This document shows positions 36,292-39,554 of a stretch of 39,632 nucleotides of DNA, piece after piece; within the stretch, counting starts at the first letter, position 1; each line of letters begins with the position of its first letter. The DNA is taken from positions 1 to 39,632 of the forward strand of contig JALGVI010000022.1 of NCBI GenBank assembly GCA_029838215.1, given 5' to 3'. The stretch comes from Candidatus Helarchaeota archaeon (lineage in GTDB: Archaea > Asgardarchaeota > Lokiarchaeia > Helarchaeales > RDOG01). The notes below the pieces were generated by a model. It saw only the letters and a list, made by a program, of their open reading frames with translations, ran no database searches and was not told where the DNA came from. The translations under genes and the position numbers were made by a program.

Positions 36292-36489
36292 ATGACCGTC
36301 GAAAAAAAACTCTGCCTTGAATGTCCCTCCTACGCAAGAACAAAACTCTTTCAAAAACTAAACGTCGTGTTCAATAACTGGTGCGAACACTACCAACGAC
36401 CACTCGGGCTTTGCAAGGGCTGCGAATTCCAGCAACCCGATAAGAACGAAATCGAAGAAATCATAGAATACGAATTCGTGTACTACTAA
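36292..36489 (+). CDS. Small Cys-rich protein (65 aa)
   Basis: CLEC...WCEHY...CKGCEF; acidic C-terminus. Confidence 0.6.
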   Translation: MTVEKKLCLECPSYARTKLFQKLNVVFNNWCEHYQRPLGLCKGCEFQQPDKNEIEEIIEYEFVYY

Positions 36490-36503
36490 TATACACGATT
36501 CAC

Positions 36504-36881
36504 TCACTTATCATATTTCTCAAGCAAGAGCTCATCCAAATCATCTGACTCATTCTCAAGCTCCTCCAACTCATGCTGAACAATCTCCAAATACTCTACA
36601 TCCACCTTTCCAACAAAATTCTCGCAACGCTCGTACCTGTCACACACGTTCACCTCAGAATACAAAACCAAGGTCCTATCATCCTTGCAAAAATCACGAA
36701 ATAACTTGCACTCGACAATCTCAAGGTCCAAATCCGATTCCTCAACCTGATCTTGGGAAAACTTACAGGTCGCACAACACTCCGCCTGCCGATAATTAGG
36801 AGGAAACTCGGGATATTCGTCTTCTGCCATTAATATTAACTCCAAATCCTCTGCTTGCTTCAAATTATTATAAAAAAACAT
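36504..36881 (-). CDS. Small acidic Cys-rich protein
   Basis: CCATCKF...CKLF...C...CDRYERC; very D/E-rich tail. Probable start ATG 36830 (GGAG upstream), giving 108 aa. Confidence 0.7.
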   Translation of the reverse strand: MFFYNNLKQAEDLELILMAEDEYPEFPPNYRQAECCATCKFSQDQVEESDLDLEIVECKLFRDFCKDDRTLVLYSEVNVCDRYERCENFVGKVDVEYLEIVQHELEELENESDDLDELLLEKYDK

Positions 36882-36967
36882 TGATTAAAAATTCAATCAC
36901 TAATTCATTTCCTTGAAATTCAAGCAAAACAAAATTCTTGATCGAGTTATTTAGGCTTGCCTAGTCA

Positions 36968-37188
36968 CCGGCATGTCGGCGGCTTTTCTCAAAAGAACGT
37001 TTATATAAATAAAACGATTTTCCGCCCCAATTCGCCCAAAAACGGCCCCGGCTCTGGCGAGCCCGCCATTCTAGATCCGCCGCGAAGGTCCCGAAGAATC
37101 TTCCGGTCCACCGCGCGGCATTTCCCTCCTCGATTCGTCACTACCGGCATGTCTTTATAAAGGATCGCGGAAAACCGCGACATGCCGG
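36968..37188. repeat. 221-bp element bounded by imperfect inverted repeats, with an internal direct copy of CCGGCATGTC
   Basis: CCGGCATGTCG at 36968-36978 is the reverse complement of 37178-37188. A third copy of CCGGCATGTC lies at 37144-37153. The core is visibly GC-richer than its flanks. Confidence 0.75.
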
Positions 37189-37252
37189 AACTTTTATTTT
37201 TAAGTCTTTCCATTTGGTTTTTATAATACCCGATCTTTTCTATATATATAGG
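37144..37252 (+). promoter_or_regulatory. Putative CRISPR leader/promoter
   Basis: AT-rich non-coding stretch with TATA-like TTTATAAA (37154-37161) and TTTTTATAA (37218-37226), upstream of repeat 1 in the orientation implied by the ATTGAAAT 3' end. Confidence 0.55.
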
Positions 37253-39554
37253 GTAGCAAGAATAAGCCTCAAGTGAGAGGATTGAAATCAAATCTTTCAT
37301 TTAAAACTGTCGAAGGGAACATTGAAAGTAGCAAGAATAAGCCTCAAGTGAGAGGATTGAAATCAAAGCATTTCTAACGTAGCTGAAACAATTTTTTTAA
37401 AAGTAGCAAGAATAAGCCTCAAGTGAGAGGATTGAAATATCATTTGTAAGAAAATGGTGATCAACGGAAAGTTTTGTAGCAAGAATAAGCCTCAAGTGAG
37501 AGGATTGAAATTGGACTTGTTCTTATTGAACGTTATGTAATGCGTTAGTAGCAAGAATAAGCCTCAAGTGAGAGGATTGAAATCTTTCTTTTTCTTGTAA
37601 ATCCTGTAAAATCCGATGACAAGTAGCAAGAATAAGCCTCAAGTGAGAGGATTGAAATGGTGGATTGCTATATAGTGCATTAACACGCCAGGAGGTAGCA
37701 AGAATAAGCCTCAAGTGAGAGGATTGAAATTTTCTTGTTGCATTACTATCTAGTTTCTCTTTAAGTGGTAGCAAGAATAAGCCTCAAGTGAGAGGATTGA
37801 AATATCTTATCGCGAGCGATTTACAAATTCAGATATAATCGTAGCAAGAATAAGCCTCAAGTGAGAGGATTGAAATGTCTTTCTCGCTTTCTCTGTCTCC
37901 ATTATGAGATCTCGTAGCAAGAATAAGCCTCAAGTGAGAGGATTGAAATAGTACACTTATTTTTATCACCTCGAGTTTTTATTATGGTAGCAAGAATAAG
38001 CCTCAAGTGAGAGGATTGAAATGTCGTTGAGAGCGTCTCAAAAATGGAACAACCAACCTGTAGCAAGAATAAGCCTCAAGTGAGAGGATTGAAATTTATC
38101 TGGAACTATACTTATCAAAACAGGATTATTTTGTAGCAAGAATAAGCCTCAAGTGAGAGGATTGAAATCGATGGAGCAGGACAACAGGCTCACAATGTTC
38201 CCCACGTAGCAAGAATAAGCCTCAAGTGAGAGGATTGAAATATCTCCCGGATTGCGAGATAGGTCAGCAAGAACGCCGGGTAGCAAGAATAAGCCTCAAG
38301 TGAGAGGATTGAAATATATCCATTACACCTTAACTTTTTACCTTCCCATACGTAGCAAGAATAAGCCTCAAGTGAGAGGATTGAAATGCAGCAGCCACGG
38401 TGATGCTCTCCTTCACCTTTATCAGGTAGCAAGAATAAGCCTCAAGTGAGAGGATTGAAATGAAATGATTTTTGTCCGCGTTATCGCGGATTTCATTAAG
38501 TAGCAAGAATAAGCCTCAAGTGAGAGGATTGAAATTGGATCACGTCGCAAGCGGCACAGCACTTGTAACTTGTAGCAAGAATAAGCCTCAAGTGAGAGGA
38601 TTGAAATATACAAGCAATCAGGGCATGGTGAAGAAAATGGCGGACGGTAGCAAGAATAAGCCTCAAGTGAGAGGATTGAAATTTTCTGGGATCTTCGTAA
38701 TGCTCGCAACAGCTAAAGTAGCAAGAATAAGCCTCAAGTGAGAGGATTGAAATATCTTATCGCGAGCGATTTACAAATTCAGATATAATCGTAGCAAGAA
38801 TAAGCCTCAAGTGAGAGGATTGAAATAGTAAATAGAAAAGCGGATTACCACGATAAGAAAAAGTAGCAAGAATAAGCCTCAAGTGAGAGGATTGAAATAC
38901 ATCTCTCACATACATTTTGAGAGATTGATTTTTTAGTAGCAAGAATAAGCCTCAAGTGAGAGGATTGAAATCCATAAAATTGCTTACTTTTAAAATGCAC
39001 GCAATTAGGTAGCAAAATTAAGCCTCAAGTGAGAGGATTGAAATTTCTCATCGCAGTCCTCCTGATCGGAGTTCTCGACCACGTAGCAAAATTAAGCCTC
39101 AAGTGAGAGGATTGAAATTCAATACGATCCTGATAAGGATCTGATACTGTATCAGGTAGCAAAATTAAGCCTCAAGTGAGAGGATTGAAATGGATTGGAA
39201 TTTAATTCCCCTACTAGGAGAATGCCTTGTAGCAAAATTAAGCCTCAAGTGAGAGGATTGAAATCCATAAAATTGCTTACTTTTAAAATGCACGCAATTA
39301 GGTAGCAAAATTAAGCCTCAAGTGAGAGGATTGAAATGACCAAAGGACTTTACCTCTGACGCACTATGATTTGGGTAGCAAAATTAAGCCTCAAGTGAGA
39401 GGATTGAAATGTTAAGAGTATTGGTGAACCTGACACCAATACATTGTAGCAAAATTAAGCCTCAAGTGAGAGGATTGAAATTTTATTGACAGGTTAGTCG
39501 TGTGTAGTGCTGAATAAGGTAGCAAGAATAAGCCTCAAGTGAGAGGATTGAAAT
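37253..39554 (+). CRISPR. CRISPR array: 32 repeats of 36 nt (GTAGCAAGAATAAGCCTCAAGTGAGAGGATTGAAAT), 31 spacers of 35-39 nt (29 unique)
   Basis: Counted directly. The stem CCTC/GAGG ends exactly 8 nt (ATTGAAAT) before the repeat end, the usual Cas6 handle of class 1 type I/III arrays. Repeats 25-31 are the variant GTAGCAAAATTAAGCC...; spacer 8 = spacer 21 and spacer 24 = spacer 28. No cas genes in the window. Confidence 0.99.

Follow-up and report, generated by a model that had tools for sequence, protein, structure and literature searches.

What is the role of a 10-bp element that stands three times, in both orientations, between a CRISPR array and a small acidic gene in an Asgard archaeon? 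We addressed this question in a stretch of 39,632 nt (hereafter the window). The host genome spans 3.6 Mb (38.6% GC, 94% complete), and the closest relatives of its Cas1 are labelled Helarchaeota and Lokiarchaeota. Its sole assembled array comprises 32 repeats of 36 bp (37253–39554), assigned to the + strand by an orientation inferred from the 3′ end of the repeat and the position of its stem. The type I-B cas locus is located on contig C80, which starts with DUF2797-cas1-cas2-cas4, encodes a stand-alone Cas2 without a Cas2-3 fusion, and carries inside the cas locus a gene for a Csa3-like HFX_2341/DUF6293 protein (C80:10026–10634). Two alternatives, a leader beyond the right-hand end of the array and a junction of contig C52 with C80, were dropped, as the sister strain L047 shows the start of C80 running into a separate array of its own with a different repeat.

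Three copies of one 10-mer in the intergenic stretch

Every motif string quoted in the earlier note was found at its coordinates, and both the perfect 10-bp inverted repeat (37144–37153/37179–37188) and the inner hairpin (37166–37179) were verified. Three copies of one 10-mer in the 371-bp intergenic stretch are beyond chance: any 10-mer occurred three times in 4 of 3,000 dinucleotide shuffles, and none of 9,678 fixed genome tiles contained three copies of a GC-rich 10-mer with both orientations represented, in a tiling that splits the window's own site. The elements of the mirror image described earlier, a TATA word with a downstream element on each side, are real, but their symmetry is loose. 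The TATA word and its arm are 25 bp apart on the right and 30–32 bp apart on the left, and the left TATA word (37000–37009) has no direction of its own because it is a perfect palindrome. Furthermore, the mirror couples arm 1 with arm 3, whereas the conserved units proved to be the inverted repeat of arms 2 and 3 and the spacing between arms 1 and 2.

The non-coding module that adjoins the first repeat, upstream in the crRNA sense, is designated leader A (36951–37252, + strand); its left boundary is the point at which identity with a cas-linked copy in the sister strain L048 ends (36951). Arm 1, a distal direct copy of the 10-bp arm (36968–36977, + strand), lies 176 bp upstream of arm 2. It is followed by a block (36988–37021) that contains the palindromic TATA-like word, with a purine-rich flank on the + strand side; this block is near-identical in a second leader, leader B (C80:101–172 and L047), and absent at the corresponding place in the more distant leaders examined. 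The junction of an apparent 82-bp deletion relative to the sister strains L030 and L048, either real or an assembly error, falls at 37044–37045. Arm 2 (37144–37153, + strand) is the left arm of the inverted repeat and starts at −109 from the first repeat. The 25-bp core (37154–37178, + strand) opens with an eight-base TATA-like word (consensus YTTWTAAA), and arm 3 (37179–37188, − strand) forms the right inverted arm. A proximal TATA-like word (37218–37227, + strand), kept in leader B, reads as a putative alternative array promoter.

Two leaders in one species and their copies in sister strains

Leader B is complete in L047, while the cas locus of the window genome retains it as a cut-off copy (C80:101–172). 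When the missing 82 bp of leader A were taken from L030, the two leaders gave a gap-free alignment of 382 bp with 63% identity, and all three arms of leader B carried the same three substitutions (TGCACGAC vs GGCATGTC). The inner hairpin of leader A is not kept in leader B. In L030, which carries the extra 82 bp, arm 1 and arm 2 are 258 bp apart, and L048 runs into extra sequence that is also present in L030; on this alignment, the 176-bp gap of the window is read as 258 bp minus an 82-bp deletion relative to the sister strains. In L048, leader A sequence precedes a second DUF2797-cas1-cas2-cas4 module whose Cas1 is 66% identical to that of C80; this matching module is absent from the assembly of the window genome. 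The module is thus conserved before related arrays independently of its flanking genes, as the match to leader B and the L048 copy indicate. One species therefore offers natural controls: two leaders with different arms and different Cas1 proteins (66% identical), and a putative natural 82-bp deletion.

These comparisons bear on two earlier proposals. The first was a 221-bp MITE inserted in the leader, a reading to which the 11-bp terminal inverted match between arm 1 and arm 3 lends some appeal. However, the genome-wide search suggested in the earlier note, once run, returned 11 copies of the 10-mer (three in the window, four in an unrelated repeat near contig ends, and four scattered), and the sole similar stretch elsewhere in the genome is the second leader at C80:101–172. 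Moreover, leader B is colinear without gaps through both ends, the length varies by deletion (221 bp in the window versus 303 bp in a sister strain), and neither a target-site duplication nor an empty site is visible. Without dispersed copies, the MITE is refuted, and its probability is negligible. The unrelated repeat is the end, approximately 80 bp long, of a repeated element, probably an insertion sequence; it lies near four contig ends (C28:254, C49:187, C96:9370, and C154:18818) and carries the same 10-mer by coincidence.

The second proposal was a pair of divergent promoters under one factor, coupling crRNA output to the acidic Cys-rich protein (36504–36830, − strand; likely start 36830, the same ATG at which database gene calls begin). 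It is true that 140–180 bp separate the left TATA word and arm 1 from the start of this gene, but the gene has a TATA-like word of its own at 36867–36874, approximately 40 nt before the likely start, and the spacing of the two faces is unequal. The left TATA word is not conserved beyond leaders A and B, and among the leaders compared only the two closest showed a TATA 22 bp from arm 1. In addition, leader A also fronts DUF2797-cas1 in L048, and the relative L029 has a syntenic orthologue of the acidic gene (64%), with the small convergent partner gene kept, at a site with neither array nor motif. The leader before DUF2797-cas1-cas2-cas4 and the orthologue without a leader together indicate that the acidic gene is a bystander, and we consider the coupling very improbable.

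The two small Cys-rich genes (36292–36489 and 36504–36830) form a convergent pair that is also found in L029 (5359–5850); as it is kept there without an array at the site, the pair is older than the arrival of the array. In the sister strain (L028:160–558), both small genes have lost their ends to a 61-bp deletion, which lengthens the acidic protein to 132 aa.

A length-locked layout shared by Asgard leaders

Leaders were collected via Cas1 and DUF2797 homologues, all within the Asgard phylum. A DNA search with the leader in 60 relatives gave weak matches only, indicating that the layout is conserved and the sequence is not. Exact-repeat scans of metagenome, genome, and viral collections and a scan of metagenomes for Cas1 loci returned nothing useful. 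Fourteen leaders from Cas1-homologue loci, aligned by eye, revealed a common plan, in which inverted arms of 10 bp flank a core whose first bases form a TATA-like word. In all 14 aligned loci (C80:332–1201; L047–L058, L108–L116), a DUF2797-related gene heads the cas1-cas2-cas4 genes beside the leader.

A matrix built from these 14 leaders was then run blind on 600-bp windows of leaders outside the training set. It placed the dyad start at −107 to −109 in all six leaders with a first repeat, from three other Asgard families, and, for the family with the far-upstream element, at −256 in one additional leader and −270 in another; no such match appeared in five mini-arrays or lone repeats that have no leader. 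Over the window genome, the window's own dyad scored highest (27.7 bits), and the next match reached 19.7 bits. Arm 1 was then located at 255–258 bp in 8 of the 9 newly tested leaders, matching arm 2 exactly in two of them.

In total, the layout recurs in 23 Asgard leaders, which supports the earlier suggestion of an undescribed archaeal leader architecture. The core measures 24–26 bp (25 bp in 20 leaders, 26 bp in three), and its positions 2, 3, and 5–8 are conserved in 19–22 of the 23. Arm 1 lies 254–258 bp upstream of arm 2 in 20 of 22 leaders, although several arm 1 calls are weak (6/10); it stands at 329 bp in L059, and no clear arm 1 was found in L132 or L117. In one family (L133, L134, and L136), the 257-bp gap is nearly pure A/C filler when read on one strand, which argues that its length matters and its sequence does not. 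Beyond the L108–L116 family, the layout occurs with other arm sequences, and approximately 148 bp nearer to the array, in five other leader groups. Arm 2 starts at −107 to −109 in nine leaders from four groups, and arm 3 ends 65–75 bp from the first repeat, or approximately 212 bp in one family. The dyad axis falls at −84.5 to −86.5 in nine leaders, at −97.5 or −98.5 in three, and at −231.5 to −235.5 in eight. These shifts of approximately 1 and 14 helical turns are what a site facing the first repeat would be expected to show, a weak argument given the few independent events.

Collectively, the feature in the window is very probably one instance of a conserved leader layout, locked in its lengths, that precedes CRISPR arrays of Asgard archaea. 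A literature search found no published description of Asgard leaders or of this layout; the leader motif surveys of Santiago-Frangos 2021 and Buyukyoruk 2025 lay outside its scope, so an earlier description may exist there. As a motif, the layout marks and orients Asgard arrays, including leaders truncated by assembly breaks.

Exceptions and variants were also observed. The L058 array, with 112 repeats, has lost the inverted repeat through an 89-bp deletion that may be recent or an assembly error; leaders of this species (L058 vs L059; L060) differ by this dyad-removing deletion and one of 36 bp, reflecting either polymorphism or misassembly of C-rich stretches. Related genomes also contain lone repeats and mini-arrays that lack a three-arm leader (L094, L097–L100, and L051:20410), and some of them could be regulatory crRNA-like units.

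Concerted change of the arms

Arm sequence varies between leaders and changes together within one leader. Arm 3 shares a mean identity of 7.1/10 with its own arm 2 versus 4.5 with the arms of other leaders; across the arms, own-partner identity is 7.1–7.6/10 versus 4.5–4.7 overall and 6.2–6.6 within groups. A within-group permutation gave P < 0.001 for this own-partner likeness, a value overstated by the kinship of the leaders. A single arm position barely varies, being G in 65 of the 68 arms.

Such concerted change would also be expected if arm 3 paired alternately with arm 2 or arm 1, as RNA or extruded DNA, forming either a switch or a cruciform cut by an Slx1-like DUF2797 protein. The window region folds better than its shuffles as DNA (z −3.2), and the best matches of the predicted model of the DUF2797-related protein are the GIY-YIG nucleases HIGLE and Slx1, albeit weak (Z 4.9–5.5); a preprint likewise describes a GIY-YIG-like Slx1/HIGLE fold (10.64898/2026.10.10.758204). 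Against this, the arms form a mean of 7/10 pairs around a 25-nt loop, and 40 of the 67 mismatches fall outside the G-U and A-C classes. Only 4 of 67 are G-U on the array strand, a rarity that argues against an RNA stem. The RNA z-score of −1.6, the loss of the inner hairpin in leader B, and an Rfam search of the window region that returned only sub-threshold CRISPR repeat matches point the same way. The layout also exists in a family group (holding G314, G320, and G389) where the DUF2797 profile found nothing in 89 genomes. We therefore regard alternate pairing as improbable. With RNA pairing unlikely and the inner hairpin not conserved, protein sites on double-stranded DNA remain.

Three further candidates were set aside. 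A non-coding RNA from 37020–37205 was dropped on the Rfam result and the RNA z-score, DUF2797 as a universal reader of the arms on its 0/89 count, and arm 2 as a plain BRE on the finding that arms 1 and 3 share its consensus without an adjacent TATA.

Candidate roles of the arms

Positions, spacings, and concerted arm sequences are conserved across the leaders; protein binding at any of these sites is what we infer from them. In the reading that we rank first, at about even odds and by analogy, the machinery of spacer integration would dock on the arms as double-stranded DNA, within a protein-bent scaffold for Cas1-Cas2. In such a scaffold, a protein of the host, either TBP bound to the TATA word or a histone, would bend the core and set arms 2 and 3 side by side, a two-fold symmetric Cas1-Cas2 complex would grip both arms and put the first repeat into the active site, as in type I-F, and arm 1 would close a longer loop of fixed length. 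The 10-bp inverted arms, the AT-rich core, and the position within 110 bp of the first repeat are consistent with this, and so is the near-invariance of a single base per arm, since I-F Cas2 mainly recognises shape. Invariant arginines in the Cas2 alignment are not decisive for a grip on both arms. The scaffold is favoured because the dyad resembles the type I-F unit and because of the shifts by approximately 1 and 14 helical turns. Conversely, the TATA word has its fixed place at the core's left edge, which fits a promoter no less well than it fits a symmetric bend, Thermococcales leaders likewise keep the promoter at a set distance from the repeat (PMC13748974), and the L058 array speaks against a strict need for the dyad, unless its deletion is recent or an assembly error. 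In the window, the 82-bp-shorter loop and the missing cas module suggest that this copy may be a partly disabled orphan.

The off-centre, strongly conserved TATA word also suits a second role for the arms, as operators for a regulator of the Csa3 type, with CARF and winged-helix domains, that would co-regulate the array and the adaptation genes through a DNA loop. Arms 2 and 3 would then bracket the array promoter, with arm 2 in the BRE position and arm 3 over a start near 37180–37185, and arm 1 would lie near the promoter of the divergent DUF2797-cas1-cas2-cas4 operon. Consistent with such operators, the HFX_2341/DUF6293 gene lies inside the C80 cas locus, 8 of 17 other genomes have a Csa3-like gene no more than approximately 30 kb from cas1, a TATA-like word stands immediately left of arm 1 in one family, and in Sulfolobus Csa3a binds Cas1 as well as a motif in the leader and the csa1 promoter (PMC5587795, PMC9456107). 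However, G320 and G389, both 98% complete, have the three-arm leader but yielded no Csa3-like gene, and no exact copy of arm B lies in the intergenic DNA of the C80 interference genes. The geometry fits poorly as well: the arm centres are 35 bp apart, more than a 27–28-bp Csa3a site, and a 45-bp dyad is wide for one dimer. A promoter need not hold a helical register with the first repeat, and one family has the element at −235 and a separate BRE/TATA-like word near −40. Regulation by a Csa3-like protein is thus the main alternative, possible but less likely than the integration scaffold; the two are compatible, and both could hold.

Archaea generally lack IHF. How spacers are steered to the first repeat in archaea without it is partly understood, through histones and one proximal motif in Pyrococcus and through Csa3a in Sulfolobus. 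A bolder version of the integration scaffold, which we consider unlikely, is that TBP replaces IHF across Asgard archaea: by kinking the TATA between the arms, it would make the array promoter double as a Cas1-Cas2 landing pad, with the third arm, 257 bp away, closing a chromatin loop. If true, transcription and spacer uptake would be tied to one switchable DNA fold. The layout supplies exact, testable coordinates for such models, namely three arms, a 25-bp core, a 257-bp gap, and a helical register to the repeat.

Comparison with known leader systems

In the type I-F leader of Pseudomonas aeruginosa, the scaffold is ordered IR(distal)-IHF(distal)-IR(proximal) (bioRxiv 10.1101/2023.05.26.542337; PMC12661925), and two 10-bp inverted arms flank DNA that IHF bends; the Cas2 dimer grips these arms mostly by shape (bioRxiv 10.1101/2023.05.26.542337). 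The Asgard leaders likewise have two 10-bp inverted arms and an AT-rich core within approximately 130 bp of the first repeat, with few conserved bases per arm. They differ in that the host system is an archaeal type I-B without a Cas2-3 fusion, the core is a TATA-like word and not an IHF site, and the third arm 257 bp upstream has no I-F counterpart; binding in the Asgard leaders would follow by analogy.

Archaeal I-B leaders conserved to 300–500 bp, with fixed motif positions, are known from the Thermococcales (motifs T1–T22) and the Methanococcales (M1–M14), in a survey that did not cover Asgard archaea (PMC13748974). Their imperfect inverted pair T22/T3 and AT-rich repeat-adjacent segment resemble the Asgard plan (PMC13748974). 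In contrast, T22 (−472) and T3 (−316) are approximately 156 bp apart, and the BRE/TATA lies at −64 with no inverted arms described around it (PMC13748974). Inverted motif pairs and long motif-bearing archaeal leaders are therefore already known, in another geometry.

In Sulfolobus islandicus, Csa3a has a leader site at −130 to −103 and a related site at the promoter of the adaptation operon (PMC5587795, PMC9456107). The likeness lies in these related sites at leader and adaptation promoter and in the Csa3-like gene in the cas locus of the window genome. However, the Csa3a site is one compact imperfect palindrome of 27–28 bp upstream of the TATA, whereas the Asgard leaders have three separate 10-bp arms with gaps of 25 and 257 bp, including a 45-bp dyad that brackets the TATA word. 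The Asgard layout thus resembles both the I-F scaffold and the Csa3a sites and belongs to neither class, and a shared mode of action would rest on analogy.

Further observations on the array and the cas module

In the sister strain L047, cas1 of the C80-type module is split into two reading frames of 80 and 237 aa (L047:1513–2535). Within the window's array, two spacers are duplicated (37804–37840/38754–38790 and 38972–39008/39265–39301), and seven variant repeats form a block (39009–39481) flanked by consensus repeats.
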